Part shown: piece by piece, positions 4,505-39,388 of the stretch
How the letters are laid out: each line of letters opens with the position of its first letter
Position numbering within the stretch: the stretch's first letter is position 1
Source: Candidatus Omnitrophota bacterium
GTDB lineage: Bacteria > Omnitrophota > Gorgyraeia > JAZDFF01
Length of the DNA stretch: 64,000 bases
NCBI GenBank assembly: GCA_043808095.1
Contig: JAZDFF010000031.1
Coordinates: forward strand, 37,073 to 101,072
Direction of reading: 5' to 3'
Made by a program: the position numbers and the translations under genes
Notes under the pieces: model-generated
Told to the model about the DNA's origin: nothing
The model's database searches: none
Seen by the model: the letters and a program-made list of their open reading frames with translations, nothing else

Positions 4505-4512
4505 GTGAAGCC

Positions 4513-4580
4513 ACAACTTATGGAAGTCCGCCACAGATTTGTTGGCGGACGACATAAGTTGTATGGCTGAACTTATCCCC
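4513..4580. repeat. Nested hairpin repeat ACAACTTATGG...CCGCCAC..GTTGGCGG...ACATAAGTTGT...GGCTGAACTTATCCC
   Basis: A shorter copy lies at 10365-10412 (acaacttatggaacatagtgacataagttgt ctggccgaatttatccc). Confidence 0.65.
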
Positions 4581-4756
4581 CATCACTTTTTAAAATACTT
4601 TGGGGCGGGGAAGATAAATTTTAATAAAAGAAAAAATATTTTTTTCGAACTCAGCACTATCAATAAAAGTGGTGGGGGGTTAAATTCACAGACGGCTTTC
4701 AGCCTACAATTTACGTCATAAACTCCGTAAATTGGCTGTTCATTTAAGGAGGATAC

Positions 4757-5743: not shown

Positions 5744-5887
5744 GAAATGATTACAGTGATTTTTCCCGCCACAAAGATTGGCGGGTCCGCCAAAGCATTA
5801 TGGCGGAAAAAGAGATTACAGTGATTAATTACCGTAATCAATGTTAATAATCACTGGAATCATAACTAATTTTTTAACAGGAATAAC

Positions 5888-6520
5888 ATGAGACATAGAG
5901 TCCTTCGATACCGTCTGAATCGTTTTACCAGTTTTCGGAAAGCAACCCTAAAAAGTCTTGCCAGGGCCGTACTTTTGAATCAGAGGATTAAGACTACCAA
6001 GACGAAGGCCAAGGCCGCCGCAAGGTTGGTAGAAAAATTGATCAGCCTGGGCAAGGCGGATACCCTTTCCGCAAAGCGAAGGGCATTTGCCATACTGACT
6101 GATCACAAATTAGTAAGTTTATTGTTCAATGATATCGCGCCTCGTTTTAAAACCAAAAAAGGCGGTTACACTCGGGTTATTTTGTGGAAAAACCGCCGAG
6201 GAGATAATGCGCAACTGGCGGTTTTGGAACTGACTGAGATTGCTATTAAAGAAAAATCCAAGCCAAAGCCGAAGGAAAAGGCAGAAAAACCAACTGCGCC
6301 TAAACCTGAGGTCGAAGCCAAAGAAGAGGCTCAGAAGCCGGAAAGGCCTAAGATTGTAAAACCTAAGCCGGAGAAACCAAAAGAAGAAAAACACGAAGAG
6401 AAAAAGAAAGAAACGGTAGCTCCCCCAATTAAAGAAGAGCATAAAGAGACCAAAAAACCATCCAAAAAATTCTTTGGTGGCCTGAGAACATTCTTTAAAA
6501 AGCAAAAAGATTCTACCTAG
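5888..6520 (+). CDS. rplQ: 50S ribosomal protein L17 with a long Lys/Pro/Glu-rich C-terminal extension
   Basis: The L17 core covers aa 1-120. A low-complexity KPKPEKPKEE tail of about 90 aa follows. Confidence 0.85.
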   Translation: MRHRVLRYRLNRFTSFRKATLKSLARAVLLNQRIKTTKTKAKAAARLVEKLISLGKADTLSAKRRAFAILTDHKLVSLLFNDIAPRFKTKKGGYTRVILWKNRRGDNAQLAVLELTEIAIKEKSKPKPKEKAEKPTAPKPEVEAKEEAQKPERPKIVKPKPEKPKEEKHEEKKKETVAPPIKEEHKETKKPSKKFFGGLRTFFKKQKDST

Positions 6521-6622
6521 AAAGCTCATCTTGACCCTACTCGGCCGGGTTTTTAGTTTTAGCCCCGGGCGAGCAAAGCGAGTAGAAGGGTTCGCCATTA
6601 AAATGGGAGGAGTAAGAGACCA

Positions 6623-7783
6623 ATGATTCTTAGCCGAAGAGTGAAAGCTGTTTCTCCTTCGCCTACCTTAGCCGTCACTGCGCGTGCCAAACAGATGAAG
6701 GCGGCCAATATTGATTTGGTTAATTTTGCCGCCGGTGAGCCTGACTGGGATACCCCGGATGTTATAAAAGAAGCTGCAATCGACGCCATAAGGTCTGGTT
6801 TTACCAAATATACCCCCACAAGCGGCCTTCCCGAATTAAAACAACAAATCTGTGATAAGTTCAAAAAAGATAATAACATTGCCTACAAGCCGGAGCAGGT
6901 TGTAGTAACCTGTGGCGCAAAACACGCCCTTTACAATATCCTGCAGGCAATTGCCGACAGCGGCCATGAAGTAATTATCCCGTCGCCTTATTGGGTAAGT
7001 TACCCCGAAATGTGCCTACTTGCCGGTGCCAAGCCCGTCTTTGTAAAAACCTCCTTGAAAAATAATTTTAATTTAACCGGAAAGGACCTCAAAAAAGCTA
7101 TCACCAGAAAAACCAAGGCCCTTATTATAAACAGCCCCTCTAACCCTGCGGGTTCGGTTTTATCTATCGACCAACTAAAAGATATTGCCGCTCTCTGCGT
7201 CTCCAATAATATTTATTGTATAAGCGACGAGATTTATGAAAAATTAATCTACGATAATTTAAGGCATGAGTCTATCGGCTCACTCTCGGATGCAATTTAT
7301 AAATTGACCTTTACGGTAAACGGCGTATCAAAGACCTATTCTATGACTGGCTGGCGTATCGGCTATCTGGCAGGGCCTTTGGATGCAGTCCAGGCAATAG
7401 GCAGATTACAGGACCATTCAACTTCAAATCCTTCATCAATCAGCCAGAAAGCGGCAATTGCCGCCTTAAAACTCGAGCCCTCTTTTATCAGCCCGATGGT
7501 TGAAGAGTTCCAAAATAGACGGGACTGCTTCCTGAAAAGGCTGGATAAGGCAGAACTCGCTTATATCAGGCCTCGGGGAGCATTTTATGTCTTTTGCAAC
7601 ATCAAGAAAACCGGGCTTGGTTCGGATGAATTTTGCAAAAGATTCCTTGAGGAGGCCAAGGTTGCCGCTATCCCGGGCAAGGGCTTTGGAAATGATGATT
7701 ACGTGCGTTTTAGTTTTGCGACCAGTATGGCTGATATAGAAAAAGGCCTAGATCGATTAGAAGGATTCCTTAAACGGATTTAA
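6623..7783 (+). CDS. Aspartate/aromatic aminotransferase (class I PLP-dependent)
   Basis: The PLP-lysine context SKTYSMTGWRIGY and an overall AAT class I fold. Confidence 0.8.
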   Translation: MILSRRVKAVSPSPTLAVTARAKQMKAANIDLVNFAAGEPDWDTPDVIKEAAIDAIRSGFTKYTPTSGLPELKQQICDKFKKDNNIAYKPEQVVVTCGAKHALYNILQAIADSGHEVIIPSPYWVSYPEMCLLAGAKPVFVKTSLKNNFNLTGKDLKKAITRKTKALIINSPSNPAGSVLSIDQLKDIAALCVSNNIYCISDEIYEKLIYDNLRHESIGSLSDAIYKLTFTVNGVSKTYSMTGWRIGYLAGPLDAVQAIGRLQDHSTSNPSSISQKAAIAALKLEPSFISPMVEEFQNRRDCFLKRLDKAELAYIRPRGAFYVFCNIKKTGLGSDEFCKRFLEEAKVAAIPGKGFGNDDYVRFSFATSMADIEKGLDRLEGFLKRI

Positions 7784-7913
7784 AAATAAATACATTACAC
7801 CGCTAAACCGCAAAATTGCCGCAAAATCGCAAAATTTTTTAATATTTTCTTTGCGTTTTTGCGCCCACGGTTAGTATTTCTGTAGTTTTGCGCCTTTGCG
7901 GTGTTAAAAGAGC

Positions 7914-9173
7914 ATGAGAAATAAAACCATTGCGGAAAAAATATTATCTAATCACGCCAAGAAGGACCTTAAGGCAGGAGACTTTGCTGTCTGTAATGTA
8001 GATTTCTGTTTTGGACAGGACGGCACCAGTAATATCATAATTGAGCGTATCAAGGAATTAGGCTTTAAGGATTTGGCTTTAAAGAACAGGGCATGCCTGG
8101 TGATTGACCATTCAAGCCCAAGCCCTAACCAGGGAGTTTCCGCCATTCATAACCGTATGCGCGCATTTGCCGCCGGACACGGCCTTATGCTTTATGATAT
8201 CGGTTGTGGCATTTGTCATCAGGTAATCCTCGAGTCAGGCGGGATTCTACCCGGAGATTTAGTCCTGGGCGCGGATTCGCATACCTGTACTTACGGGGCA
8301 CTAGGGGCCCTGTCAACCGGAGTAGGCTCGACTGATTTATCCATTGTCCTGGCAAGCGGCAAAAACTGGTTCAGGGTGCCCCAGACGATAAAGATTATCG
8401 TAAAAGGAAGGCTTAAAAAAGGAGTTGTTGCTAAAGATGTTATACTATATATTATTTCGCTACTCGGTTCGGGTGGTGCAACTTATAAGGCAATAGAATT
8501 TTGCGGCCCAGTCATTGATGACTTGGATATGGACGGCCGTTTCACTATAGCTAATATGGTCGTGGAGCTCGGGGCAAAATGCGGTTTTATGCCGGTAGAT
8601 AAAACTACACACGTCTGGCTGAAATCCCGCGTTAAAAAAAAGATTTCCCCGGTTTCAAGCGATAAAGATGCCGAATACTCTGATATCATAGAGATTGACG
8701 TAACAAAACTTACTCCCCGCATCGCCAAGCCCCATAGCGTAGATAACGGCGCATCAGTTAAAGAGGTGGAAGGTACGAAGATCGATGAGGCATTTTTAGG
8801 CACCTGTACTAACGGCAGGTTAAAAGACCTGGAGATGGCCGCTAAGATTTTAAAAGGTAAAAAAGTAGCCAAATCAGTAAAATTTATCGTAGCCCCGGCG
8901 TCCCGTGAGATTTTCTTAGAGGCGCTTAAAAAAGGAATTATCGAGATATTTATCCAGGCTGGTGCAGCCGTAGTCAATCCCGGATGCGGGCCTTGCGTGG
9001 GTACGCATCAGGGCGTGCCTTCGGATAATGAAGTAGTGATATCTGCCGCAAACAGAAATTTTAAAGGCAGGATGGGTAACCCCAGTGCCTTTATTTATCT
9101 GGCATCTCCTCTGACTGTTGCTGCTTCAGCAATTAAAGGCGAGATTACCGACCCCAGACGTTTCTTGAAATAA
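7914..9173 (+). CDS. leuC: Aconitase-family dehydratase large subunit, archaeal-type LeuC/homoaconitase-like (419 aa)
   Basis: Aconitase-family Fe-S ligand region GTCTNGRL, CGPC. The length is typical of short archaeal-type LeuC/HACN. Confidence 0.7.
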   Translation: MRNKTIAEKILSNHAKKDLKAGDFAVCNVDFCFGQDGTSNIIIERIKELGFKDLALKNRACLVIDHSSPSPNQGVSAIHNRMRAFAAGHGLMLYDIGCGICHQVILESGGILPGDLVLGADSHTCTYGALGALSTGVGSTDLSIVLASGKNWFRVPQTIKIIVKGRLKKGVVAKDVILYIISLLGSGGATYKAIEFCGPVIDDLDMDGRFTIANMVVELGAKCGFMPVDKTTHVWLKSRVKKKISPVSSDKDAEYSDIIEIDVTKLTPRIAKPHSVDNGASVKEVEGTKIDEAFLGTCTNGRLKDLEMAAKILKGKKVAKSVKFIVAPASREIFLEALKKGIIEIFIQAGAAVVNPGCGPCVGTHQGVPSDNEVVISAANRNFKGRMGNPSAFIYLASPLTVAASAIKGEITDPRRFLK

Positions 9174-9204
9174 GCATAATTAAGCGGTTGAGTATTAAAA
9201 AAGG

Positions 9205-9234
9205 TTGCGTTTTGGGCTACGTATCGTCTATAAT
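9205..9234 (+). promoter_or_regulatory. Sigma70-like promoter upstream of pilT (TTGCGT, 18 nt spacer, TATAAT)
   Basis: -35 ttgcgt at 9205-9210 and -10 tataat at 9229-9234. Confidence 0.45.
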
Positions 9235-9309
9235 GTTATTGTCAAACGTTTTGCGTAAAAATACGATAAACGAAATGATAAGTAACTAAACTTATATGGA
9301 GGGTTAAAA

Positions 9310-10356
9310 ATGGAACTACGGGAACTATTATTAATGACCGTGCAGAACAAGGCCTCGGATTTACATCTTACCGAAGATATGCCGCCGATACTGCGTATCG
9401 ACGGAAAGCTTACTCATACAAAGCTTCCTAAACTTAACCGCGAGGGCCTGAAGAAATTGGTTTATACTGTTTTAACGGACAGCCAGAAGGAGAAATTTGA
9501 AAGAGAGCTGGAGTTGGATTTATCCCTGGCCTTGCCCGGTTTGGACCGTTTCAGGGTGAATATTCACGTCCAGAGAGGATCGGTTGAGGCGGCGCTGCGC
9601 CGTATCCCTTTATTAATCCCGACACTTGAAGAGTTGGCCCTTCCTAAGATAGTGACAGAACTTGCGCTTAGGCCCAATGGGCTGGTTTTAGTTACGGGCC
9701 CTACCGGCGTCGGTAAGACTACCACGCTTGCGGCCATGGTAGATTTGATTAACACCCAGAGGGAGCAATTAATAATTTCTATCGAAGACCCGATTGAATA
9801 TATCCATGTGAATAAAAAGAGCATCATTAAACAGCGCGAGGTTTTTACGGATACGCATTCATTCGCCGATGCCTTAAAGCATTGCCTCCGCCAGGATCCT
9901 AACGTCATTGTGGTAGGAGAAATGCGCGATTTGGAGACCATTTCAACGGCTCTTACCGCCGCAGAAACCGGCCACTTGGTTTTGGCAACGCTGCATACCC
10001 CGGACGCGCCCCAGACCATTGAAAGAATCATCGATGTCTTTCCGCCTTATCAGCAGCAACAGGTGAAATTACAGTTGTCCGACTGTATCCAGGGCATCGT
10101 TTCGCAGCTGCTCCTTCCGCGGGCATCGGGAACAGGCAGAGTCGCAGCCACTGAAATTTTAATCGGGACCTCAGCCATCCGTAATCTTATCCGCGAGCAG
10201 GAGATTGAGCAGATCCCGACTCTCATGCAGACCGGTCATCAATACGGCATGAAGATTATGGATAAATGCCTTAAAGAAATGGTTGCGCAGGGTTTGATTA
10301 CCATGGAAGTAGCATTAACCAAGGTAAAGAATCCCAATGAGTTTAAGAGTATGTAA
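9310..10356 (+). CDS. pilT: Type IV pilus retraction ATPase PilT
   Basis: Walker A GPTGVGKTT, the PilT N-terminal region, and Asp and His boxes. Confidence 0.85.
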   Translation: MELRELLLMTVQNKASDLHLTEDMPPILRIDGKLTHTKLPKLNREGLKKLVYTVLTDSQKEKFERELELDLSLALPGLDRFRVNIHVQRGSVEAALRRIPLLIPTLEELALPKIVTELALRPNGLVLVTGPTGVGKTTTLAAMVDLINTQREQLIISIEDPIEYIHVNKKSIIKQREVFTDTHSFADALKHCLRQDPNVIVVGEMRDLETISTALTAAETGHLVLATLHTPDAPQTIERIIDVFPPYQQQQVKLQLSDCIQGIVSQLLLPRASGTGRVAATEILIGTSAIRNLIREQEIEQIPTLMQTGHQYGMKIMDKCLKEMVAQGLITMEVALTKVKNPNEFKSM

Positions 10357-10544
10357 ATGAGGTTACAACTTATGGAACATAGTGACATAAGTTGTCTGGC
10401 CGAATTTATCCCGAGCAATCATTTATTTGAATGGTTGCGAGGGATCTCATTTTTTATCTACTGACGTTTTAGTGGCGGGGAATCATCTGTGCTCATCTGT
10501 GAAATCATTGGTAATGACTTTAAATCTGTGCTAATCTGCGAATT

Positions 10545-27385: not shown

Positions 27386-29014
27386 TTACTTAGTAACCTT
27401 GTTCTTCTTTAACTCAATGATAAACTCACTCCTAACGCCAACCTTACTTTCCACTCCAATGCTCCCGCCATGTTCCTTAATTATCCCGTGGGTAATAGAC
27501 AGTCCTAGGCCTGTTCCGGTTTCCTTGGTGCCGTAAAATGGGTCAAAGATATGAGGAAGGTCTTTTGTCTGAATACCGGCTCCTGTATCCTTAATGCTTA
27601 TCTCAACCCAACCAGGCTCCTTATCTACAGTCTTTATGGTCAGGATTCCGCCCTGTGGCATTGCATCGAGCGCGTTGAGGATGATATTTAAGAACGCCTG
27701 TTTTATCTGAACCGGGTCAAGGTTTAGGATAGGATTTGTAGAGTTAAATTCTTTGACTAAGGCAACTTTCTTTTTTAATAAATCATTGGTTAAAAGCGAA
27801 AATGTATCTTCTAATAATTGGTGGATATCGCAGTCTTGTAGCTTAAGAGGGGTGGGCCTGGCAAAGTCAAGCAGGCCGTGGACGATATTATTGATTTTAT
27901 CTACCTCAGAGCCGACAATCCTTTGAAATTTCTCCAAGAATTCCGGATTGTCTTTATTTTCCTTAAGATACTCGGTAAAGGTCTTAATCGAGGTTAAGGG
28001 ATTCTTAATTTCATGGGCCATGCCTGCGGCTAGCGTTGCAACTGCCTTCATTTTCTCTGAGCGACGTATCTCTTCCTCCAGGCGTTCTTTTTCCAGTGCC
28101 AGGGAAGAGAGAGTGCCTTTGAAAAACAGTCGATCAATGATTTTCTGGATTCTGTCTTTGACAGGGTTAAAAAATAGGGCAATTACAAACGCCGCAAGGA
28201 TTGAAGCAACAAGAGAGCTATAGCCCATAAAAGTATGTAACAAGCGTTCAAGGAGCATAACAAAAATTAGATAGGTTGCTGTGATAAAGGCAACCAGAAG
28301 AGAATAAACTAGGCCTTTTTGAATGACTACTTTTATGTCCATGAGTTGGTGTTTGATTATTGCATAGGCCGACACAAAAATAAATATCGGAACAAGATAA
28401 TTACTAAATGGATTAAGAGGATAAAAATGCAAGTTATACATATAAGCCAAATTTGATAGGCCTCCTATATAACCGATAATAGTTGCCCAAAATAAATATT
28501 TTAATTGATTTTTTTTAGTTCCTGTTGATTTTCGATATTTCACATAGAAAAGCCTTTCTGCATAAATAACTGTTATTAAAAAATAGTACCATGTTAGGAT
28601 ATAAAGTGGCCCAACAAAAAAAGAATACTTGATAAATTGATTTGGAATTACTTTGTTAAGATATAATTTAGATGGAAATGTTAATAGGAAGATAATGGCA
28701 ATGACATAAGCAGATTTAAGAATAAAAGCTTTTTTAATATTTAATAATTTGACGACAAAATGTAAAAATAGCACCGGAATCAAAATTACTCCGATATGTT
28801 CCAATTTTCCAAACAGAAGCACCAAATTTTCTTTACCGATCCATCCAATCCAAGATTGACAAAAACTCCATTCAGCAATACATAAACAGAATATAAAAAA
28901 TATTTTGTTTACTGTTTGTTTTCTATTAGAAAAAAATACAAAAATACCAAGAGCAAGTGAAGTAAAACTCGAGAATAATAATGCAAACCTGTAATTAAAT
29001 TCGTAAAATTCCAT
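27386..29014 (-). CDS. Sensor histidine kinase with N-terminal 7TM domain (paralog of 15576..17189)
   Basis: The C-terminal part of the TM domain and the HK core are near-identical in places to 15576..17189 (AIIKHQLMDIKVVI..., AHEIKNPLTSIKTFTEYL). Confidence 0.8.
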   Translation of the reverse strand: MEFYEFNYRFALLFSSFTSLALGIFVFFSNRKQTVNKIFFIFCLCIAEWSFCQSWIGWIGKENLVLLFGKLEHIGVILIPVLFLHFVVKLLNIKKAFILKSAYVIAIIFLLTFPSKLYLNKVIPNQFIKYSFFVGPLYILTWYYFLITVIYAERLFYVKYRKSTGTKKNQLKYLFWATIIGYIGGLSNLAYMYNLHFYPLNPFSNYLVPIFIFVSAYAIIKHQLMDIKVVIQKGLVYSLLVAFITATYLIFVMLLERLLHTFMGYSSLVASILAAFVIALFFNPVKDRIQKIIDRLFFKGTLSSLALEKERLEEEIRRSEKMKAVATLAAGMAHEIKNPLTSIKTFTEYLKENKDNPEFLEKFQRIVGSEVDKINNIVHGLLDFARPTPLKLQDCDIHQLLEDTFSLLTNDLLKKKVALVKEFNSTNPILNLDPVQIKQAFLNIILNALDAMPQGGILTIKTVDKEPGWVEISIKDTGAGIQTKDLPHIFDPFYGTKETGTGLGLSITHGIIKEHGGSIGVESKVGVRSEFIIELKKNKVTK

Positions 29015-29168: not shown

Positions 29169-29441
29169 TTACCTATAAATTTCTCTTCTGTGGCCTAAGT
29201 CAATGATGTATATGATTAAGGTATTTTTATGGATAGTATAAATGATACGATAATCGCCTACGCGTAAAGAATAATCACCTGAAAGCTTACCTTGTAGGCG
29301 TTTTCCCTGATAAGGATCTGTTTTTAGAGTTTCTATGACGGTTATTAGGCGGGAATACAGTTTTTTATCTATTCTAAATATCTTTTCTAATGCTCCAGCC
29401 GCAAGCCGCGAAAATTCTATTTTAAACATCTGTTTTCTCAA
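29169..29441 (-). CDS. RelE/ParE-family type II toxin
   Basis: 90 aa. The C-terminal YRIIYTI...IIDLGHRREIY pattern is typical of RelE/ParE. Confidence 0.65.
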   Translation of the reverse strand: MRKQMFKIEFSRLAAGALEKIFRIDKKLYSRLITVIETLKTDPYQGKRLQGKLSGDYSLRVGDYRIIYTIHKNTLIIYIIDLGHRREIYR

Positions 29442-29709
29442 TTCTTGCGCGTAACTCTTCTAAAGAAACGGTTTTTCCGGCTTTAATTTCTTTCTTGGCC
29501 TGTTTTATCCTTCTTGCGGATTCTTTGTCCGAGAGGATCTCGATTGTTTCTAAAAATCCTTCATAATCATCGGGGCTTAGCATAATTGCGATCGGTTTTC
29601 CTCTTTTAGTAATAATATAGCGGTCTAGTTTGGTATCTATATTTCTTATTACCTTCGGTAATCCCGGGCGCAACGCCTTTAACGTAATGGCATTAACCAT
29701 TTTAACCAC
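29422..29709 (-). CDS. Phd/YefM-family antitoxin
   Basis: 95 aa. It overlaps the downstream toxin gene and has a Phd/YefM-like N-terminal fold signature. Confidence 0.6.
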   Translation of the reverse strand: MVKMVNAITLKALRPGLPKVIRNIDTKLDRYIITKRGKPIAIMLSPDDYEGFLETIEILSDKESARRIKQAKKEIKAGKTVSLEELRARIEKTDV

Positions 29710-29755: not shown

Positions 29756-30133
29756 TTAGATTATCTTTTCGACCTTTTCGAGTAAATCTTTTGACTCGAA
29801 GGGCTTGACGATATAGTCAGAGGCGCCGCTTTTTACAGCCTCTGTTGCCATTTCTACGCTTTTATAGCCGCTGACTACCGCGATTTTCTGATTTGGAGAA
29901 AGGCCCTTAATCTGTTTTAAGATATCCAGGCCGCTAATCTTGGGCATCTTGATATCAAGAAGGATAAGGTCAGGTTTTTGCCCCTTTTTGAGGCATTCCA
30001 GGCACTCCTGGCCGTCTGTAGCAAAGGAAAGGTCATAGTCCTTGCCTAAAATCAGCCTCAGCGACTCGCGGATGCCTTCTTCGTCATCGATGCAGTGGGA
30101 AATCTCACCAAACAGACCGATGCCAAAGCACAA
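29756..30133 (-). CDS. Response regulator receiver domain protein, possibly 5'-truncated at the junction with the Rhs gene
   Basis: The REC motifs (DDEE, LLDIKMP, SGY, KPF) are complete. The N-terminal few residues are encoded antisense to the Rhs coding sequence, and the only candidate start is a TTG. Confidence 0.55.
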   Translation of the reverse strand: MCFGIGLFGEISHCIDDEEGIRESLRLILGKDYDLSFATDGQECLECLKKGQKPDLILLDIKMPKISGLDILKQIKGLSPNQKIAVVSGYKSVEMATEAVKSGASDYIVKPFESKDLLEKVEKII

Positions 30134-33100
30134 GTTTTAAACTTTACCTATGACTCGCTCAATCGCTTAACTAGTAAATCCGCAGGCGACAAGACATCGG
30201 TTACTTATCAATACGACAGCGGCCCATACGGCATCGGCCGCTTGAGCAAAATCCCAGATACCTCAGGCCAGACCGAGTTTTTCTACGACAATTTAGGCCG
30301 CGAGATTAAATCTATCAAGACTGTGAGCGCAATTACTTATACTGTTGAGCGCACCTATGATGCCCTGGATAGGCTCACCAGCCTTAAATACCCTGATAAT
30401 AGCATGGTCTTCTACGAGTATAATCCTCAGGGCATCCAAAATGTCCATAGTTATTCATCCGACACTAACGGCCTTAAATTGTATTTGAATTGCAATGGCT
30501 CCGATGGTTCAAGAAATTTTATAGATGCAACCGGCAAAAACGTTAGTGTTTATGGCAATGCCCAAATAGATACTGATCAATACCAGTTTGGCGGTGCCTC
30601 TGGTTTGTTTGACGGCAATGGAGATTATCTCTCATTAGCAGATAGTGATGACTGGAGCTTTGGTTCAGAAGATTTTACAATAGATTTTTGGGTGAGATTT
30701 AATGCATTACCGTCGTCTGGGGATGGGGCGACAATTCTAAGTCAAAGAGAGTCGACTATTAGATGGTATGTGACATTGTGGAACAGAAGTGGAACTTATG
30801 AATGGCATTTCCAGACATCGGATGTTTCTAATAGTATTGTGGTGGTAAAGGCTACGACTGTAGCCATTGATACTTGGTATCATATAGCGGTTGTCCGCGA
30901 TGGCAATAATTTTATGATATTCCAAGACGGCGTTCAAGTAGGCACTACTGTAGCGAGTGCTGATTCTGTACCTGATGTAGCAGGACCATTAGATATAGGA
31001 ACTTTTAATAGAATAGACGCTAATTTGAATGGTTGGTTAGATGAGTTAAGAATTTCTAAAGGTATAGCCCGCTGGACATCCAATTTTACTCCACCAGATG
31101 AATCTGATTACTCCCAGTATAACTATGAAACCTTCATTGCCAACATCGACTATTCACCCACCGGCCAGATTACCAAGATTGTTTATGGAAATGGCACCGA
31201 AACCAACTATGCCTACAATCCCAATACGCTGCGGCTATCGCATCTGACTACGGGTTTATCCGGTCAGGCCGCCACTCTGCAAGACCTGCAATACCAATTC
31301 GACAATGTGGGCAATATCTCAAACATAGCCGACTCAATAAATACTGCCACCCAATCATTCAACTATGATGATTTGAATCGCCTCATTCAGGCGCAAGGCG
31401 CTTACGGCGCATTTAGTTATACTTATGATTCTATCGGCAATATGACTAATAAAGAAGGAGTGGCCTTAACTTATGGCAAGGCCGGGAAACTTCCTCATGC
31501 TGTTACTCAATACGGCTCGACGCTAATTGACTACGACGTTAACGGCAATATGGCCACTAAAGACAACCTGCAATATACCTATGATGCGGAAAACCGCCTG
31601 ACTGAAGTGGAAGACACAACCGCCACCCAGCCACAAACCCTGAATATCAGCCTGCAGCCGGGTTGGAATTTTGTTTCTTTTGCTGTTCTGCCCTCGATTA
31701 CCACGATTAGCTCAGTATTGGCCTCAATCGCCGGAAAATACGACCAGGTTTCTCGATACAATTCAACAACCAGATCCTTCGAGCATTATGTGGGTAATTC
31801 TAAATACGACCAGTTTTCTACCTTTGAATATGGCAAGGGTTATCAGATTTATGTCACTTCAGCAACAGGCGCGGCCCTGACTGTCACCGGAAATATCCCT
31901 TCTTCATTGGATATTTCGCTAAAATCCGGCTACAACCTGATTGCCTGTCCCCAAATGGCTGAGACACCGGTTGAAGAGGCGCTAAAACCTTTAAAATTAG
32001 GGGTTGATTATTCCAAGGTCCTGCATTATAATAAAAACTTAGCGCTCTTTGAAAAGTATGACGCAGAAAGCCACGAGTTCTCAAGCCTGAATCCGGGCGA
32101 GAGTTATTATCTCTATTGCCTGAAAAATACGAGCTGGGTGGCGCAGAATACCGCGCCGACGACAACTTTTGCTTATGACGGCGACGGCGGAAGGGTAAAG
32201 AAGACAGTCGGCTCAAATACCACCACCTACATCGGCTCGCTGTTTGAAAAAGACTCAAGCGGCAAGACTACTAAGTATATTTTCTCGGGAGCAAATCGGG
32301 TCTGCACAGTTGAATCAACCGGCGATAAATACTTCCATCATTCGGATCATCTGGGAAGCAGTAACGTCGTGAGCGACGACAACGGCCAGCAAATTGGCCT
32401 CACCGAATTCACTCCCTACGGCTCAGTTTCACAACAGGCCGGCACCTTTGACCCCAAACACAAGTTTACCGGAAAAGAACTCGACGCGAGTACGGGGTTG
32501 TATTTTTACGGCGCCCGCTACTACGACCCTACCATCGGGAGATTCATAACTGCCGATACGATTGTCCAGTCGCCCTACGATCCCCAAAGCCTGAATAGGT
32601 ATTCTTACTGTCGAAACAACCCTCTAAACTACACTGACCCGACTGGGCATAGTTGGAAGAAGTTTTGGAATAGCTTTGCTGGAGCGTTTGTAGCTGTTGC
32701 CCTTGCTTTTGTGCTTGGTCCTGCTGGGTTGTACTGGGTAGGTTCAACCATGGCCTGGGCAATCGGAGGGGCGGCAGGAGGAGCCCTCACAGGTGGACTT
32801 GAAGGCGGTTGGAAGGGTGCTTTAATAGGCGGGGCTCTAGGAGGTGCCCTAGGTGGTTTTGGCGCTTGGGGAGTAAGGGAATTTGGAGCTGGTTTTGGCT
32901 ATGGGATGTTAGCTGCCGGTGCAGGAGTGGCCGGCGCTACCGATAGCTGGGATAGCTTTGCAGGAGGAGTTGTCGGAGGAATTGCTGGAGCAGCAGTTGG
33001 GAATATTTGGAATGATTTTACTGGTGCACAGTCAGGAGTTAATAGAAATGATTTGGCTGCACAAACTGAACAATTAAAACAAGCCCAGCAAGCCCTTAAT

Positions 33101-33553
33101 ATAGAGCCGAATGAAACGATTAGAGTAGGCACAAGAGATGCAGTTTTAAATGCCGACCATCAATTAATACGAAGACAAAATGGTATGATTGTGGAGGCTG
33201 GTGCTGGTGAAGGTGGCAAGATGACAGTTTTCCAATATAATCCCCAAGATTATATTAATCCTGCTTCTCGTGTAAATCTAGCACCTACTCAAAAGCACAC
33301 CTTATCTGCTCTGTATGAAGGTAAACTACATTTACGATGGTCTAATCCTGTCCCTGTTAATTCAGCAAAACTAGATACTTTAATTAGCGGAGTTCAATCA
33401 ATATGGTCGGCTGCAAATTATGCTGCTGGAGCATTTAATAGTAACTATGCTATAAATACTTTTGTTTACGGTTCAGCGCCACTTGGAACAAAAATAACAG
33501 GTCTACATACATGGAGACCGAGTTTCTCGGGTAATTATGGGAAGGACCAATGA
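30095..33553 (+). CDS. Rhs/YD-repeat toxin, N-terminally truncated: YD repeats, LamG-like insert, RHS core ending DPTGH, glycine-zipper C-terminal toxin domain
   Basis: Repeated YD motifs (TYQYD, TYTYD, FAYDGDGGR), the core YFYGARYYDPTIGRFITADT...NYTDPTGH, then a unique 300-aa C-terminus. The ORF begins mid-repeat with a GTG. Confidence 0.8.
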   Translation: MGNLTKQTDAKAQVLNFTYDSLNRLTSKSAGDKTSVTYQYDSGPYGIGRLSKIPDTSGQTEFFYDNLGREIKSIKTVSAITYTVERTYDALDRLTSLKYPDNSMVFYEYNPQGIQNVHSYSSDTNGLKLYLNCNGSDGSRNFIDATGKNVSVYGNAQIDTDQYQFGGASGLFDGNGDYLSLADSDDWSFGSEDFTIDFWVRFNALPSSGDGATILSQRESTIRWYVTLWNRSGTYEWHFQTSDVSNSIVVVKATTVAIDTWYHIAVVRDGNNFMIFQDGVQVGTTVASADSVPDVAGPLDIGTFNRIDANLNGWLDELRISKGIARWTSNFTPPDESDYSQYNYETFIANIDYSPTGQITKIVYGNGTETNYAYNPNTLRLSHLTTGLSGQAATLQDLQYQFDNVGNISNIADSINTATQSFNYDDLNRLIQAQGAYGAFSYTYDSIGNMTNKEGVALTYGKAGKLPHAVTQYGSTLIDYDVNGNMATKDNLQYTYDAENRLTEVEDTTATQPQTLNISLQPGWNFVSFAVLPSITTISSVLASIAGKYDQVSRYNSTTRSFEHYVGNSKYDQFSTFEYGKGYQIYVTSATGAALTVTGNIPSSLDISLKSGYNLIACPQMAETPVEEALKPLKLGVDYSKVLHYNKNLALFEKYDAESHEFSSLNPGESYYLYCLKNTSWVAQNTAPTTTFAYDGDGGRVKKTVGSNTTTYIGSLFEKDSSGKTTKYIFSGANRVCTVESTGDKYFHHSDHLGSSNVVSDDNGQQIGLTEFTPYGSVSQQAGTFDPKHKFTGKELDASTGLYFYGARYYDPTIGRFITADTIVQSPYDPQSLNRYSYCRNNPLNYTDPTGHSWKKFWNSFAGAFVAVALAFVLGPAGLYWVGSTMAWAIGGAAGGALTGGLEGGWKGALIGGALGGALGGFGAWGVREFGAGFGYGMLAAGAGVAGATDSWDSFAGGVVGGIAGAAVGNIWNDFTGAQSGVNRNDLAAQTEQLKQAQQALNIEPNETIRVGTRDAVLNADHQLIRRQNGMIVEAGAGEGGKMTVFQYNPQDYINPASRVNLAPTQKHTLSALYEGKLHLRWSNPVPVNSAKLDTLISGVQSIWSAANYAAGAFNSNYAINTFVYGSAPLGTKITGLHTWRPSFSGNYGKDQ

Positions 33554-34482
33554 TAAAAAAATATTATATAATCGGTATTATAATATTAGTTTTTTTTACA
33601 GCAAAAGGCTTTGCAATAGAAGAGGTTAATATGTATCACGAATTGAAAAAAATTGATAAGTCTGGTATTTGGAAAAATATTTGGTGCGATGGGTATGAAA
33701 TACATCTATGTAACTTGCCTTTCTATAAAAGAGGAACAAAGTTATTTGAAGTAGAAAACCGTAAATTTATGCTTATAGGAAATCGTGAATTATCGCCTGA
33801 TGCAAAGAAAATAGCATTTACACTTGAGACTTATAAGCATAGAGCTTATCAGAATATTATTCGTACAGATCTCTATATAATGAATAGCGATGGAACAAAC
33901 CTTACGAAATTACCAACCGATGTATTTGAAAATATCTTTCTAATCGGTTTTTTAGGAGACGGCAAGCTTGTATTGGAACATTCCGAAGTAGAAAATTACC
34001 TTCATAAACCAGAAACTCGGGTAATCTATACCATAGACCTAAATACAAATAAAATTAATAAATTTGCTAATCAAAAAATTTCAATTAGTAGTCTCAATGC
34101 TTCTGCGAAAGGTGATTTATTAATATGCCCAGAACAGAATATGACTATTGTTTATGATGTTGAAAATAATGCAACCAAAAAAATGAATATAAAAATGGAT
34201 GCGCCTGTTCTGTCACCGGATGGTAAAAAAATTCTTTTCAGACGCGGCGATATGATGGGAAGTTATTACATTGTTAATATTGACGGAACTAATGAAGAAT
34301 TGTTGCTGTCAGATGAGAAGATTCGATATTTACTCAAAGGTTCTGGAGATTATAGAGATTTAGTCTATGCGAGTTGGTCTCCCGATTCAAGATTCCTCTT
34401 GTTTACTGAATCTTCGGACCTACAAAAAGGTAAGTCGTTTGTATTAGATATTGGCTCTAAAGAGATAGTTAAGATAAGGTAA
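33550..34482 (+). CDS. Putative Rhs immunity protein: secreted/anchored TolB/PD40-like beta-propeller protein
   Basis: Start overlaps the Rhs stop (ATGA). There is an N-terminal hydrophobic segment and PD40-like segments (DGTNLTKLPTD, SPDGKKILF, WSPDSRFLLF). Confidence 0.4.
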   Translation: MIKKYYIIGIIILVFFTAKGFAIEEVNMYHELKKIDKSGIWKNIWCDGYEIHLCNLPFYKRGTKLFEVENRKFMLIGNRELSPDAKKIAFTLETYKHRAYQNIIRTDLYIMNSDGTNLTKLPTDVFENIFLIGFLGDGKLVLEHSEVENYLHKPETRVIYTIDLNTNKINKFANQKISISSLNASAKGDLLICPEQNMTIVYDVENNATKKMNIKMDAPVLSPDGKKILFRRGDMMGSYYIVNIDGTNEELLLSDEKIRYLLKGSGDYRDLVYASWSPDSRFLLFTESSDLQKGKSFVLDIGSKEIVKIR

Positions 34483-34616
34483 TTTACAAGGCGAATTCCG
34501 GGGAATTCCGGGGACACACACGTAATTCACGGATTATTTGAATTTCATAAAATTACTAGACGCTTTATTTAAACACTTGGAAAATAAGGACAGCGACTAT
34601 TTATTTTTATATCTAA

Positions 34617-35981
34617 GCAAGTTCGCTCTTTGAAAAAGACTCAAGCGGCAAGAGCACCAAATACATTTTTTCAGGCGCAAACCGGGTCTGCACAGTTGAA
34701 TCAACGGGCAATAAGTATTTTCACCACTCAGACCATTTAGGCTCAAGCAATGTCGTTAGCGATGCCAATGGCGCTCAAGTCGGCCTGACTGAATTCACTC
34801 CCTACGGTTCAGTCTCAAAACAAACCGGCACCTTTGACCCCAAACACAAGTTCACCGGCAAAGAACTCGACGCGAGTACGGGGTTGTATTTCTACGGCGC
34901 CCGCTACTACGACCCTACCATCGGGAGATTCATTACTCCTGATTCAATAGTTCAAGCTCCAAGCGACCCACAGTCACTAAACCGATATTCTCAATCCCGG
35001 AACAACCCAATCACCTATATTGATCCCAATGGTCGATGGTTCTGGGCTGCTATAATTATTGGTGCTATTTTAGGGGGAGGTTCAGCAGCGGCAAATCACC
35101 AGCCTATATGGCAAGGTGTGCTTATGGGAGCTTTAGGGGGTTTGATGATTGGTGGAGGAGCAGCTGCTTTTGGTTTTTGGGGAGCAGTAGGAGGTGGAAT
35201 GATTGCCGGTGCATCTAATTCTGCTGTGTTTGGAGGCAATATTGGATTTGGTGCTCTTATTGGCGGTCTGGGAGCTGGCATAGGTTATGGTTTAGGTTCA
35301 TGGGCAAGTGGATGGAATGAGGGTAGTTTTTGGGGACAATTAGGTGCAGCAGTAACTGCAGGCAGCGTCGCAGGCGGAGTAGGAGCAGAACTTCAAGGTG
35401 GTAAATTCGGCCAAGGCGCGGGGATGGGAGCAGCATATGGGGCTGCTGGATTTTTTGGATCAAAAGCAGGCAATTGTCTTGACCCACGTATTCGTCAGGC
35501 ACAAAAATATGAACAAGAAGTTAGAAAAATGCACGCTCTTAATAGCAAAAATAACGACATGATAAAGATTGATGTTGGTGCGAGACCGGCGGTAGGTCCT
35601 GCAGATCATCGTTTTTTATTGAAATGGGAGATGGGTTCAAGATATCCAGGAAGTGGCCCTATAGAAACTACAAATACTATGGGCGATCTATCAAATTGGC
35701 CAACCTATAGGCATACTCAAAGTGCTATCAAATCGGGAATGGCACACTATGCTACCGCTGAAGTCAGCGCATCAGGTTTAGTTGATGCAATAGCCCTTTA
35801 CGAGCAGTATTGGGTTAATACGAATACAATTTATAGTGGTGGGAGTTATAATAGTAACTATGCCATAAATACTGTAATCTATAGTGCAGGTGGAACTGTG
35901 CCAGGAGGATTGGGCTTGACCCCCGCTTTTGGTACTGTACCCGCTTCCGCATTCTATCCCTATATACCTAAAGAACGATGA
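34617..35981 (+). CDS. Orphan Rhs C-terminal cassette (displaced rhs-CT): copy of the Rhs core end plus a divergent glycine-zipper CT domain; lacks an N-terminus
   Basis: Nucleotide identity to 32240-32560 is high. The translation LFEKDSSGKS...YFYGARYYDPTIGRFITPDS...DPNGR is followed by a different CT, whose C-terminal motif NSNYAINT is shared with the main CT. Confidence 0.65.
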   Translation, partial: ASSLFEKDSSGKSTKYIFSGANRVCTVESTGNKYFHHSDHLGSSNVVSDANGAQVGLTEFTPYGSVSKQTGTFDPKHKFTGKELDASTGLYFYGARYYDPTIGRFITPDSIVQAPSDPQSLNRYSQSRNNPITYIDPNGRWFWAAIIIGAILGGGSAAANHQPIWQGVLMGALGGLMIGGGAAAFGFWGAVGGGMIAGASNSAVFGGNIGFGALIGGLGAGIGYGLGSWASGWNEGSFWGQLGAAVTAGSVAGGVGAELQGGKFGQGAGMGAAYGAAGFFGSKAGNCLDPRIRQAQKYEQEVRKMHALNSKNNDMIKIDVGARPAVGPADHRFLLKWEMGSRYPGSGPIETTNTMGDLSNWPTYRHTQSAIKSGMAHYATAEVSASGLVDAIALYEQYWVNTNTIYSGGSYNSNYAINTVIYSAGGTVPGGLGLTPAFGTVPASAFYPYIPKER

Positions 35982-36385
35982 GCAAAATGAAGCAAAGTAT
36001 TATAGTACTCTCTATAGTATTAATTACAATTTATTTGTTAAATAATAATAGAGGAATCGCTATGGAGGATAAACTAGATCACAAGACTGTCATTAAAGAA
36101 GAATTAAAACAGATAGAGATTTCCGATGGAGTTAGTAAAAAGGAGGCAATTATTATTGCTCAGAATGAATTAATTAAAGATGGACTTGAAAAAGAGTATT
36201 ACATTTCTAAGCCAATAATAACGGAAAGTAAGTTGGTAGACGGGTGTTGGTTTGTTAGGTTTAACATGAAATTTAAATTCGGATATATATTGGAAAAAAT
36301 ATTATTTCTTGGAAGATGGTGCGGATACCATATTGAAAAGAAATCAGGCGAAATAAAAATGAAAGATTGGGGTCCTGACTTATAA
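35978..36385 (+). CDS. Small secreted/membrane-anchored protein, candidate immunity protein for the orphan CT
   Basis: ATGA overlap with the orphan CT. It has an N-terminal signal/TM segment and is paralogous to 37344..37712. Confidence 0.35.
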   Translation: MSKMKQSIIVLSIVLITIYLLNNNRGIAMEDKLDHKTVIKEELKQIEISDGVSKKEAIIIAQNELIKDGLEKEYYISKPIITESKLVDGCWFVRFNMKFKFGYILEKILFLGRWCGYHIEKKSGEIKMKDWGPDL

Positions 36386-36568
36386 ATAAAAAATCATAGA
36401 TATCTTTGTTCTCAAATGCAATTTAAGAAATAGGAGTTCTTATACCAATTTTTATATAGACTTATAAAGAGGCATTTATGAAAAGAGCACTTCTAGTCAG
36501 CATAAGCAATAATGGTGTCAGAACTCAATAACCCTTTTAATATATAAAATTGTCGTGTAAAAATTCCG

Positions 36569-37263
36569 GGGACACGTACCTTTTATTTAACAAATAATAT
36601 CAGATGACGTAGAAACATCCATGAGTCCACGAATGGCAAGAATTGTTTTTTCTAATATGCCTCATCACATAGTTCAGCGAGGTAATAGAAGGCAGGATGT
36701 ATTTTTTGAAGATGAAGACCGCGAGATTTATTTACGTTTATTAAAAGAACAGATACAAAAGTATGAAGTCCAAGTATGGGCGTATTGTCTTATGAGTAAC
36801 CACGTACATTTAATCGTTGTTCCCGCCAATAAAGATTCTTTAGCGAAAGCCATAGGAGAAACCCATAAAAGATATACCAGAATGATCAATTTCCGAGAAG
36901 GATGGCGTGGATATCTTTGGGAGGGTAGATTTAAGAGTTTTCTCTTGGATGAAAAGTATGTCTATGCCGCTGTTCGTTACGTTGAGAGAAATCCGGCAAG
37001 AGTTAAGATTGTAAAAAGAGCGGAAGATTACCCTTGGTCAAGTGCCAAGGCCCATATTAAACGTCTAAATGGAACCGTCTTAAGTGATTTCTATCTCTTA
37101 GATGAAATAGCAGATTGGTCAGATTATTTACGCCAGGAGGATAAAGAAGAAGACTTGAAGATATTTAGGCGTCATGGCAGTGTGGGTAAACCAATAGGGG
37201 ATGCTAAATTCATAAAACGGACTCGGATTAATCAGTTCAATTAGGTACGTGTCCCCGGAACTT
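36569..37263 (+). mobile_element. REP-associated tyrosine transposase (RAYT/IS200-like) unit with flanking inverted REP-like sequences TTCCGGGGACACGTACC
   Basis: ttccggggacacgtacc at 36569-36585 and its reverse complement ggtacgtgtccccggaa at 37247-37263 bracket the tnp ORF. A related gaattccggggaattccggggacacacacg lies at 34491-34522. Confidence 0.65.
36621..37244 (+). CDS. IS200/IS605-family Y1 (HUH) transposase, RAYT-like
   Basis: HUH motif SNHVHLIV, a downstream conserved Tyr region (YVERNPARVKIV...YPWSS), and a typical N-terminus MARIVFSNMPHHIVQRGNRRQDVFF. Confidence 0.75.
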   Translation: MSPRMARIVFSNMPHHIVQRGNRRQDVFFEDEDREIYLRLLKEQIQKYEVQVWAYCLMSNHVHLIVVPANKDSLAKAIGETHKRYTRMINFREGWRGYLWEGRFKSFLLDEKYVYAAVRYVERNPARVKIVKRAEDYPWSSAKAHIKRLNGTVLSDFYLLDEIADWSDYLRQEDKEEDLKIFRRHGSVGKPIGDAKFIKRTRINQFN

Positions 37264-37343
37264 ACAATTTATAGTATTGGTAGTAGCGTTCCAGGATGTG
37301 TGCAAGCACCAGAATTTTCTAAATTTCCTTATAGAAAATAAAA

Positions 37344-37712
37344 ATGATAATACTTATAAACAAATTTATTATACTGAGTTTGGTTATACTACTTATATTT
37401 CTGAAGCCTAAAATTGGAGGCGCTATGGCTGAAAGACCGATTCAAGATGAAATGCAAATAAAGGTTGATTTGTCAGATGGCGTTAATAAAGAAGAGGCGA
37501 TAATTCTTGCAAAGAACTACTTAATACATAAAGGGCTAGAGAAAAATGTAATCATTTTTAAGGCCAAAGTTAGAGAAAGTCGGTTATTTAAAGAATGTTG
37601 GACTGTTTACTTTCCTCCATCTCCTAATATTCGGGCAAGAATACCATTTGATTTTGTGGTAGACGTAGATAAAAAAACCGGTGAAATAAAACTAGCTGGT
37701 TGGAATAAATAG
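37344..37712 (+). CDS. Small secreted protein, paralog of 35978..36385
   Basis: Shared segments DGV.K.EAII.A.N.LI.KGLEK and KK.GEIK...W. A signal/TM segment is present at the N-terminus. Confidence 0.35.
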   Translation: MIILINKFIILSLVILLIFLKPKIGGAMAERPIQDEMQIKVDLSDGVNKEEAIILAKNYLIHKGLEKNVIIFKAKVRESRLFKECWTVYFPPSPNIRARIPFDFVVDVDKKTGEIKLAGWNK

Positions 37713-37978
37713 TAAAATTATACAGAGTAATAAAAATAATGGTGGCGGAACTCAATAAGTTTTTATAAATAAAAATTTAAAATGATAATTCATATAATTA
37801 CTTATTCCAGTACCACTTTTATTATTTTTAAATTGACATTTTAAGGGAAAGTAGTATTCTGGGTATGTAATCTTTTTACACATCAAACTACAATGGAGTG
37901 GAATAAGGTTAAAATAAGTAAATTCATAAAACGGCTCTTCAAATATGGGCTGTTTTTTATTTTAAAAGAGGAGGAAAA

Positions 37979-38383
37979 ATGAAGAAAAATTATTTATTAT
38001 TGTTTAGTATTTTATTACTATTTGGTTGTTCAACAGCCGGCTCTCACCTTAAATCGGTTCAGTCTGACGTAGCTGACAGGGTAACTGTAGGAAAAGTCCA
38101 ACGCGAGATTCGTATTGGTATGTCATCTGCTCAAGTGGCTGAAGTATTAGGCTCTCCTAATATTGTTAGCACTGACGAAAATCGGAGAGAGGTATGGATT
38201 TATGATAAGATTGCTACGGATGTTTCTTATTCAAATAATGAAGGCGGGGCTACTTTGCTACTATTAGGCATTACTGGTTCTTCGGGTGCAGTATCGAAAT
38301 CTCAAAGGACTTTAACAGTTATTATTAAGTTTGATGAAAACAGCAAAGTCCGAGATTTTGCTTATCATACATCTAGCTTTTAG
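37979..38383 (+). CDS. Lipoprotein, BamE/SmpA-OmlA-like
   Basis: Lipobox LLFGC. GMSSAQVAEVLGSPN...EVWIY resembles the SmpA_OmlA fold. Confidence 0.4.
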   Translation: MKKNYLLLFSILLLFGCSTAGSHLKSVQSDVADRVTVGKVQREIRIGMSSAQVAEVLGSPNIVSTDENRREVWIYDKIATDVSYSNNEGGATLLLLGITGSSGAVSKSQRTLTVIIKFDENSKVRDFAYHTSSF

Positions 38384-38404
38384 GACGAAAATAAAACAGA
38401 CAAA

Positions 38405-38957
38405 AATGCGAAGCTTTCCAAAATTATTCTTATGTTTATTTTTGAGTTTGGGACTAATTAGCTGTGTCAGTATTCCTACAGGTTTTCTAAAGCTTAACGA
38501 AGGCTATTTAGAAAAAAGGCAATTGCAAATAAGGCAATACGACACAACTAATGAAGAACAGATTATAACGGCTGTCGCTGGAGTTTTACAAGATTTAGGT
38601 TTTACTTTGGATGATAGCGAAACCAAATTAGGGTTGGTATCTGCTTCTAAAAAAGCTGATGCAATAAGTGCAGGTCAAGTTACCGGCGCAATCTTCCTTG
38701 ACATGTTATCCGCTTTAGGTGGTAATTATTCTAATAACGCCGCAAGGTGTGATAAATCTCAGGTAGTTAAAGCCTCGGTAATTACGAAACTAAGCCTTGA
38801 AGGAAATAAGATGGTTGTTCGAGTTACATTTCAGCGAATTGTTTGGAACATGAGTAATCAAATCAACAGAGTAGAAACTATTAATGATCCGGAAATATAT
38901 CAGAAGTTTTATGATAGTTTATCAAAAGCGATATTTTTGGAGGCTCAGAAAATATGA
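38405..38957 (+). CDS. Lipoprotein of unknown function (paralog pair member 1)
   Basis: Lipobox LISC. It is homologous to 38954..39388 (DTT...Q.V...LQDL.F..D......GS..SK ... DPE.YQ.F...L.KAIFL.AQ). Confidence 0.4.
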
Positions 38958-39388
38958 GAAAATTAACAAGATATTGCGGTATTCTTATGATTTTATTTTT
39001 GAGTGTTGTATTGTCTGGGTGTGCAACTACCGCTGGAAAGGCTTTTGAGACCAAAGAAAGTCAGGTTAAATTAAGAAGTATCCAGACAAGAGCTTTTGAT
39101 ACAACCGATAAGAAGAAAATGATGCAAACTGTAATAAGCACGCTACAAGACTTAGATTTTGTTGTTGATAAAGCCGATTTTATGCTCGGTTCCATTACCG
39201 GTTCTAAATTTCTTGGGCACGAGGTTGTGACAATGACGGTTATTGTTAGACCACGGGGAGAAAAACAGTTGTTAGTAAGGGCAAACGCCCAATATGGGAT
39301 TAAGACAGTAGAAGATCCAGAAACCTATCAAGATTTCTTTACTGCTTTAGAAAAGGCAATATTTTTAACAGCGCAGCAGGTTGATTAA
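38954..39388 (+). CDS. Lipoprotein of unknown function (paralog pair member 2)
   Basis: Lipobox LSGC. The two genes form a tandem duplicate and overlap by 4 nt. Confidence 0.4.
   Translation: MRKLTRYCGILMILFLSVVLSGCATTAGKAFETKESQVKLRSIQTRAFDTTDKKKMMQTVISTLQDLDFVVDKADFMLGSITGSKFLGHEVVTMTVIVRPRGEKQLLVRANAQYGIKTVEDPETYQDFFTALEKAIFLTAQQVD

Follow-up and report, generated by a model that had tools for sequence, protein, structure and literature searches.

The orphan rhs-CT/rhsI modules of the Enterobacteriaceae (Escherichia coli, Salmonella, Dickeya, and Serratia) are explained by a C-terminal displacement model (Poole et al. 2011, PMC3150448; Starsta et al. 2020, PMC7043789). The C-terminal (CT) tips of Rhs and related toxins may carry glycine zippers, which form depolarizing pores in Tse5 and EsxX, the immunity proteins of Tse5-type toxins acting at or in the membrane (PMC12744356), whereas the glycine zipper of Tde1 permeabilizes membranes for translocation (PMC10240207). 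In the mosquito protein SGS1, "daisy-chained" helices that follow the core line the interior of the Rhs shell, with a predicted transition to a transmembrane state (PMC9935623). The 64-kb stretch of DNA analyzed here (the window), from a Candidatus Omnitrophota metagenome-assembled genome (MAG), carries at positions 34617-36385 what is very probably an orphan, that is displaced, Rhs C-terminal toxin and immunity cassette, the second of three in an Omnitrophota rhs array. Like its enterobacterial counterparts, it combines the start-less 3' end of an rhs core with a divergent tip and a small immunity gene, lies downstream of an rhs-immunity pair in an array with an embedded transposase gene, and has a tip that switches between the main and the orphan position from genome to genome. 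The main rhs (30095-33553), which is itself 5'-truncated, its partner gene (33550-34482), and the orphan follow one another, all on the + strand.

The relationship between the orphan and the main rhs is seen most directly in a direct repeat of 300 nt with 85% identity, which joins the 3' end of the main core (copy A, 32237-32536, +) to the beginning of the orphan (copy B, 34623-34922) and bears out a first-pass annotation, made without database searches, that had the end of the core (32240-32560) repeated at 34620-34930. The left edge of the repeat is sharp in a MAFFT alignment, with 8-10 matches per 30-nt alignment window before 34623 and 20-30 of 30 from there on, and a fainter similarity to the core extends beyond the repeat to about position 35030. 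Among the 104 codons of the repeat compared in the rhs frame there are 36 synonymous but only 11 nonsynonymous differences (synonymous divergence, dS, 0.88; ratio of nonsynonymous to synonymous divergence, dN/dS, 0.05). This mostly synonymous divergence indicates that the copies separated long ago under constraint at the protein level, which excludes both a duplication introduced in assembly and a local one of recent date. The region is also present in an independent assembly, a Logan contig from SRR27925880 (L006), that is 99.96% identical to positions 35157-37966.

The orphan frame (34617-35981, +; 454 codons) is shut by a stop codon immediately before 34617 and is open as far as its own stop at 35979-35981. 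It has no canonical start before a TTG at 34884, which is its first ATG, GTG, or TTG codon; the product in NCBI is a protein of 398 aa that begins at a CTG at 34785 (MFH1202246.1, "RHS repeat-associated core domain-containing protein"). Of the 3' end of the core, ~140 codons are kept (34617-35036), including the region of the Rhs-associated core/autoproteolysis (DPxG-type) motif, and there is neither an Rhs body nor a signal peptide. TIGR03696 matches residues 60-139 of the orphan with 79.2 bits (cut-off 32.5), and the best PDB sequence matches of the core-end fragment are SGS1, TcdB2-TccC3, YenC2, and bacterial Rhs shells.

Beyond the core fragment, the tip of the orphan (CT2) consists of a glycine zipper (35037-35477) and a toxin domain (35478-35978), and the tip of the main rhs (CT1) has the same layout, with its zipper at 32651-33040 and its toxin domain at 33041-33550 (+). 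The segment of CT2 that follows the core is 151 aa long and is 31% Gly, with 20 GxxxG motifs, 36 triple small-xxx-small motifs, and 5 charged residues, so that the divergent Gly-zipper CT described in the first-pass annotation is indeed present. The same annotation had confined the likeness between the two tips to the motif NSNYAINT(V/F)(I/V)Y and a DH-containing segment, and here it was too narrow: the C-terminal domains align along all 165 aa with 33-34% identity, and this full-length alignment indicates that CT1 and CT2 are paralogous throughout, beyond the DH and NSNYAINT motifs. The alignment of both tips and core ends that it had recommended thus yields cores that are 85% identical and differ mostly at synonymous sites, followed by tips that are divergent yet homologous. 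The same zipper is also present in the protein P0013 and in the main tip of another locus, L004, there ahead of C-terminal domains that are unrelated; a Pfam scan of these two alternative domains gave no match. Because the zipper is common to the tips while the C-terminal domain and the partner protein co-vary, specificity appears to be located in the C-terminal domain.

An exhaustive profile search of 1.84 billion representatives with the toxin domain (E <= 1e-3) returned 101 clusters, in which the matched stretch ends at or near the C terminus of the protein. Among the members are Rhs proteins, 1951-3568 aa in length, that have signal peptides and SpvB/FG-GAP/TcdB_midN regions. All six of the genome matches and all named sources are Omnitrophota. 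In 73 domain sequences His44, Tyr119, Asn125, and Asn127 are invariant, and Ser126 (99%), Gly53 (99%), and Arg36 (97%) are nearly so; residue 51 is Glu, Asp, or Gln in all 73 (Glu51 in CT2), and CT2 retains every residue that is invariant in the family. The confident AlphaFold2 (AF2) model of the domain (predicted local distance difference test score, pLDDT, 80; predicted template modeling score, pTM, 0.78) is of the α/β type and places Arg36, His44, and Glu51 in or beside three successive β-strands, with Ser126 at the opening of the last helix (residues 126-136). Judged by these sequence comparisons, the 165-aa domain is an undescribed family. A word-indexed protein search with the toxin domain alone, or with the partner protein I135, returned almost nothing. 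The position of Ser126 at the start of a helix recalls the nucleophile site of LRAT-type enzymes in the model, but this is only a lead. An identity as an LRAT/NlpC-P60 (PLAAT) protein is not supported, there being no Pfam LRAT or NlpC match and no match to a PDB fold; a motif of 19 residues (NSNY against NCEH) is all that aligns to human PLAAT3, and the hhalign probability is 0.6%.

The partner of CT2, I135, is an exported protein of 135 aa and the presumed CT2 immunity protein (35978-36385, +). Its open reading frame (ORF) begins within the CT2 stop as ATGA, and the ORF of the CT1 partner, an exported PD40/TolB-like β-propeller protein of 310 aa (33550-34482, +; Pfam PD40 and NCBIfam TolB-like matches), overlaps the stop of the main rhs in the same manner. 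Both of these proteins, and the partner protein of the third cassette (I122), have strongly hydrophobic N termini, in keeping with the earlier description of I135 as a translationally coupled signal-peptide protein. Homologues of I135 are located 3' of every CT2-type toxin examined, with identities of 41% in L001, 38% in L002 (where an extra BamE-like lipoprotein precedes it), 34% in L003, 40% in L008 (133 aa), 32% in L010, and 36% in L013. Several have a signal-peptidase-like site, G-I-A↓M, and others have a lipobox, and it is because of these sites in its homologues that the predicted export of I135 is well supported. Searches of Pfam and NCBIfam and a PDB sequence-profile search with I135 found no family, and the contig index contained no exact record for I135, P0001, or I310. 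A PepSY-like resemblance of I135, suggested by its sequence pattern, was set aside since no Pfam match supports it. It should also be noted that the homologous CT1 and CT2 (33%) are accompanied by unrelated exported partners, the 310-aa TolB-like β-propeller and the 135-aa α/β protein, respectively, and that both of these toxin-partner pairings are conserved in other genomes.

Comparison with other Omnitrophota loci indicates that tips move between positions. In Omnitrophota MAG234 (L001), a full-length Rhs of 2200 aa and its immunity gene are followed by a CT2-type orphan with an I135 homologue, a BrnT toxin-antitoxin pair, a second orphan with its immunity gene and, last, a Y1 transposase. 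L004/L005 have a full-length Rhs of 2426 aa followed by a CT1-type orphan that is 67% identical to the main tip in the window and overlaps by 4 bp with a protein of 309 aa, 69% identical to the 310-aa β-propeller of the window. The recommended search for a full rhs carrying CT2 was successful: in L008, a single Rhs ORF of 2502 aa (2981-10489) ends in a CT2-type domain (57% identity) and is followed by an I135 homologue, and L010 has the same arrangement. The third tip type, CT3, ends the main Rhs of L001, whereas the window retains a remnant of it. The same toxin types therefore hold the main position in some genomes and the orphan position in others. The full-length relatives carry SpvB, FG-GAP, and TcdB_toxin_midN domains. 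Identity among core ends is 85% in the window and 82-96% in L001 but 68-72% across genomes, whereas CT2 is 65% identical to the orphan tip of L001 and at most 42% identical to other tips; core ends thus group by genome and tips group across genomes, giving discordant phylogenies. The 5' breakpoints of the orphans in the loci compared do not coincide, a pattern in line with recombination, homologous or illegitimate, and not with cutting at a fixed site. The displaced-toxin architecture that permits CT switching, as originally proposed, is accordingly upheld with respect to the core fragment, the tip, the partner, and the exchange across genomes, but the head gene of the window is 5'-truncated, so that the array as assembled offers no intact gene that could take up the tip. 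A further variant is found in L013 (2218-4223; Logan SRR22387757), a stand-alone protein of 542 aa in which a signal-peptide-like N terminus is joined to a core end and a CT2-type toxin; a lipobox-bearing I135 homologue lies 3' of its gene, a REC (receiver) gene 51% identical to that of the window adjoins it, and there is no full rhs nearby.

In the mechanism that we propose, an incoming rhs 3' end would have recombined into the resident core and displaced its former tip downstream. As a toxin the orphan is probably silent and would constitute a stock for recombination, and the orphan immunity gene would protect against neighbors that deploy a CT2-type toxin. On a full-length, Sec-exported, TcB/TcC-like Rhs, the tip would be stored in the YD cocoon and freed when the aspartyl autoprotease cuts at the DPxG site. 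Thereafter, the glycine zipper would act as a shared membrane-insertion module that enters the cytoplasmic membrane of the target, and the 165-aa domain would be the specific warhead, probably enzymatic, at the periplasmic face, where the exported partner would bind and block it.

Several observations weigh against this interpretation of the locus. The main rhs ORF (30095-33553, +; 1152 aa, MFH1202244.1; Pfam RHS_repeat and Laminin_G_3), which comprises, in order, YD repeats, a LamG insert, a second β-sandwich insert, the core end, the zipper, and CT1, begins inside a YD repeat and is short of ~1240 N-terminal residues. It matches just residues 1239-2200 of the 2200-aa L001 protein, the first 1238 being absent from the window, and no delivery-competent Rhs is visible in the 64 kb. 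A promoter and terminator scan of the locus gave no more sites than shuffled sequence and no convincing promoter for the orphan. The starts assigned by NCBI to I135 and I122 are internal Met codons, which would exclude the signal peptide, and the AF2 model of I135, built on a shallow alignment of 4 sequences, is of moderate quality (pLDDT 70), with no significant fold in a Foldseek search of the PDB (best E 0.026). The toxin domain has no match in Pfam, NCBIfam, a PDB sequence-profile search, or PDB folds (for the model, best Foldseek E 0.3, with a template modeling score below 0.2), and its designation as a probable enzyme derives from residue conservation. The zipper segment alone has no significant PDB match, and the similarity to SGS1 discussed below may therefore be partly compositional. 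The expression and toxicity of CT2 and its neutralization by I135 are predictions. Because the head gene is 5'-truncated, the array as assembled is most likely a reservoir of immunity and recombination rather than an active weapon.

The truncation also bears on the possibility that the whole array is a graveyard, a decaying relic in which the CT2 frame is merely intact so far and at most the immunity genes are maintained. The absence of a canonical start in the orphan would fit such decay, as would the state of the third cassette, where CT3 is down to 24 codons beside an intact immunity gene whose product has 93% identity to the L001 copy. Decay is nevertheless the somewhat unlikely reading, since 454 codons are free of stops and every family-invariant residue is kept; the low dN/dS of the core fragment also points to long maintenance in functional genes, although the loss of function is not datable by this ratio. 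The opposite proposal, that the orphan is an independently expressed small toxin, translated from a noncanonical or internal start and working either like a toxin-antitoxin module or as a secreted toxin in its own right, has precedents in the orphan Rhs tips of Salmonella, which can be expressed and act as toxin-antitoxin-like modules (PMC7043789), and in the 542-aa protein of L013 with its own signal-peptide-like N terminus, I135 homologue, and lack of a nearby full rhs. The window orphan, however, has no signal peptide, no ATG, GTG, or TTG before 34884, and no convincing promoter in the scan, and an exported immunity protein would not guard against a toxin made in the cytoplasm; independent expression is consequently improbable.

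A different division of labor within the tip would make the zipper itself a membrane-depolarizing pore toxin, in the manner of Tse5-CT and EsxX, with the C-terminal domain as a targeting or regulatory appendage. The 20 GxxxG motifs in 151 aa, the occurrence of the zipper ahead of unrelated C-terminal domains in P0013 and in the main tip of L004, and the depolarizing activity of Rhs- and LXG-borne glycine-zipper toxins, which have membrane-bound immunity proteins (PMC12744356), are consistent with this proposal. We consider it unlikely, as the co-variation of the C-terminal domain with the partner places specificity in that domain, its invariant His, Tyr, and Asn-Ser-Asn and near-invariant Arg and Glu residues look catalytic, and glycine zippers can serve translocation instead (PMC10240207). 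Finally, the source of the sequence is a MAG and the junction near 30095 could be chimeric, which might raise the question of a duplication produced in sequencing or assembly. However, the copies differ at 15% of sites, mostly synonymously, their tips and partners differ, L006 reproduces 35157-37966 in an independent assembly, and the architecture recurs in other genomes. For the orphan an artefact is effectively refuted, and the caution to this effect in the first-pass annotation can be laid aside. The displaced-cassette interpretation, with a toxin that is probably silent, is the one adopted here.

The picture of two cassettes in the first-pass annotation was also incomplete, as it overlooked the truncation of the main rhs, a third cassette with a transposase, and a boundary motif similar to repetitive extragenic palindromes (REP-like). 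The third cassette begins with a remnant of CT3 (37265-37341, +) consisting of the last 24 codons, which end in IYSIGSSVPGCVQAPEFSKFPYRK, and the stop, followed by I122 (37344-37712, +), an orphan immunity gene of 122 aa that is a paralogue of I135 and the cognate of the deleted CT3. Positions 37265-37711 have 94% nt identity to the end of the full-length Rhs of L001 and its immunity gene, and I122 is 92.6% identical to the protein that follows the main Rhs of L001 but 36% identical to I135. Between I135 and this remnant is a gene for a Y1 (IS200-like) transposase of 207 aa (36621-37244, +) that resembles the REP-associated tyrosine transposases (RAYTs). It is framed by inverted 17-nt repeats of TTCCGGGGACACGTACC, the left at 36564-36580 (+) and the right at 37245-37261 (-), and has a strong match to Pfam Y1_Tnp (E 1.4e-15, 58 bits, cut-off 23) but scores under the cut-off of NCBIfam REP_Tyr_transpos (60.4 bits, cut-off 80). 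The homology to CT3 restarts 3 nt past the right inverted repeat; the transposase removed the rest of the CT3 tip.

The 12-mer TTCCGGGGACAC has three copies in the window (34506-34517, 36564-36575, and 37249-37260) versus 0.12 expected, and all are within the rhs locus, with none elsewhere in the 64 kb. The first is part of a REP-like motif (GAATTCCGGGGAATTCCGGGGACAC; 34496-34520, +) in the spacer that separates cassette 1 from the orphan. In three genomes a REP-like motif, TTCCGGGGACA[CT], is located directly after immunity genes, at cassette boundaries; copies elsewhere are at 9938 in L001 and at 8136 and 8251 in L004, and related motifs are also found near the transposase genes in L010 and L012. 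RAYT-like genes outside the window are found in L001 (14553-15065), L010 (11082-11651), and L012 (2492-2911). Together with that of the window these make four distinct genes with 31-45% mutual identity, each with its own flanking inverted repeats and all less than 250 nt away from a gene for an Rhs or of a cassette, and no RAYT-like gene away from rhs loci was found in ~190 kb of nonredundant fetched Omnitrophota sequence. It is conceivable, although we regard it as a long shot, that a RAYT-like Y1 transposase and a REP-like motif (C[CA]GGGGACA[CT]...) are a dedicated partner of Omnitrophota rhs arrays, the motif marking the 3' end of each cassette and the transposase, or recombination between motifs, inserting, deleting, and shuffling cassettes. 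If true, this would provide a site-directed route to the turnover of Rhs tips beside homologous recombination in the core. The spacers also contain a direct repeat of 44 nt with 77% identity (AATAATGGTG.C.GAACTCAATAA...) at 36508-36551 and 37735-37778, which lies ~25-125 nt 3' of both small immunity genes.

At the other end of the array, the 5' end of the main rhs meets a divergently oriented response-regulator REC gene (29756-30133, -) head to head, with the junction at 30080-30133. The rhs/REC junction at ~30095 may reflect a true rearrangement or else a chimera of the MAG; a REC gene that is 51% identical also adjoins the CT2-type gene of L013, which lends weak support, from sequence comparison, to a real genomic neighborhood. 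A pair of genes inserted between the receiver gene and a histidine kinase gene (27386-29014) encodes a RelE/ParE-like toxin (90 aa) and a Phd/YefM-like antitoxin (95 aa) at 29169-29709 (-), assignments made from sequence pattern alone. The Rhs shell has two inserts, one LamG/concanavalin-like (30500-31100; residues 173-322, Laminin_G_3) and one β-sandwich-like (~31600-32150), both of which also occur in several full-length Omnitrophota relatives and may function in receptor binding. Downstream of the array, at 37979-39388, a BamE-like lipoprotein (134 aa; 37979-38383) is followed by paralogous lipoproteins of 208 and 144 aa that are 28% identical; homologues of these three were absent from the other fetched rhs loci.

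The described systems differ from the present locus in various respects. Unlike the enterobacterial orphans, this cassette has an Omnitrophota host, a 5'-truncated head gene, exported partners, and an unclassified toxin domain, and it is associated with Rhs proteins that have a Sec signal and SpvB/FG-GAP/TcdB_midN regions (TcB-TcC-fusion-like) and are not PAAR- or VgrG-linked effectors belonging to type VI secretion systems (T6SS). Tse5 (RhsP1)/Tsi5 of P. aeruginosa is similar in having an Rhs cocoon with a hydrophobic glycine-zipper tip (PMC12744356), but the alignment with Tse5 covers the core alone (8cp6_B, E 0.0012, query residues 34-139), and here a conserved domain of 165 aa follows the zipper and the partner has a soluble α/β domain. 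The mosquito proteins SGS1 and SGS4 (8FJP and 9ON3; PMC9935623) share an Rhs shell, an aspartyl-protease site, predicted transmembrane helices, and a C-terminal α+β domain; SGS1 is the best PDB sequence match (E 2.7e-18), the alignment extending past the DPxG site into the first ~80 of 150 zipper residues. SGS1 differs, however, in being eukaryotic and horizontally acquired, and its terminal Tox-SGS domain is unrelated, the profile of the CT2 toxin domain having no match in the PDB. In the TcB-TcC cocoon of the Tc toxins (TcdB2-TccC3; 4O9X and 6H6E), the C-terminal core of TccC3 aligns with the core-end fragment (E ~1e-13), but no TcA partner was seen here and the tips are accompanied by immunity genes, which indicates an interbacterial rather than an anti-eukaryotic use. 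The transposase resembles RAYT and IS200/IS605 Y1 transposases in its Y1_Tnp domain, its 17-nt flanking inverted repeats, and the solo repeats in intergenic spacers, but unlike a RAYT it is under the NCBIfam cut-off (60 versus 80 bits) and its repeat is confined to the rhs locus within the 64 kb. Membership of CT2 in the Tse5-type pore toxins or the LRAT-like enzymes is not demonstrated, nor is that of the transposase in the bona fide RAYTs.

None of these findings overturns current understanding, and the arrangement itself is already known; the novelty lies in the phylum, in a toxin domain that is unclassified and whose exported partners have two unrelated folds, and in the recurrent association with a transposase and motif. 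The orphan-cassette (C-terminal displacement) model is extended to the Omnitrophota, a poorly known and largely uncultured phylum whose Rhs proteins are Sec-exported TcB/TcC-like cocoons and not T6SS cargo. Since the toxin domain family to which CT1 and CT2 belong has exported immunity partners of two unrelated folds or more, among them a small α/β protein and a TolB-like β-propeller, it is a candidate for studying the varied neutralization of one toxin fold, and the zipper module in common with SGS1 provides a bacterial context for the daisy-chained helices of that protein.

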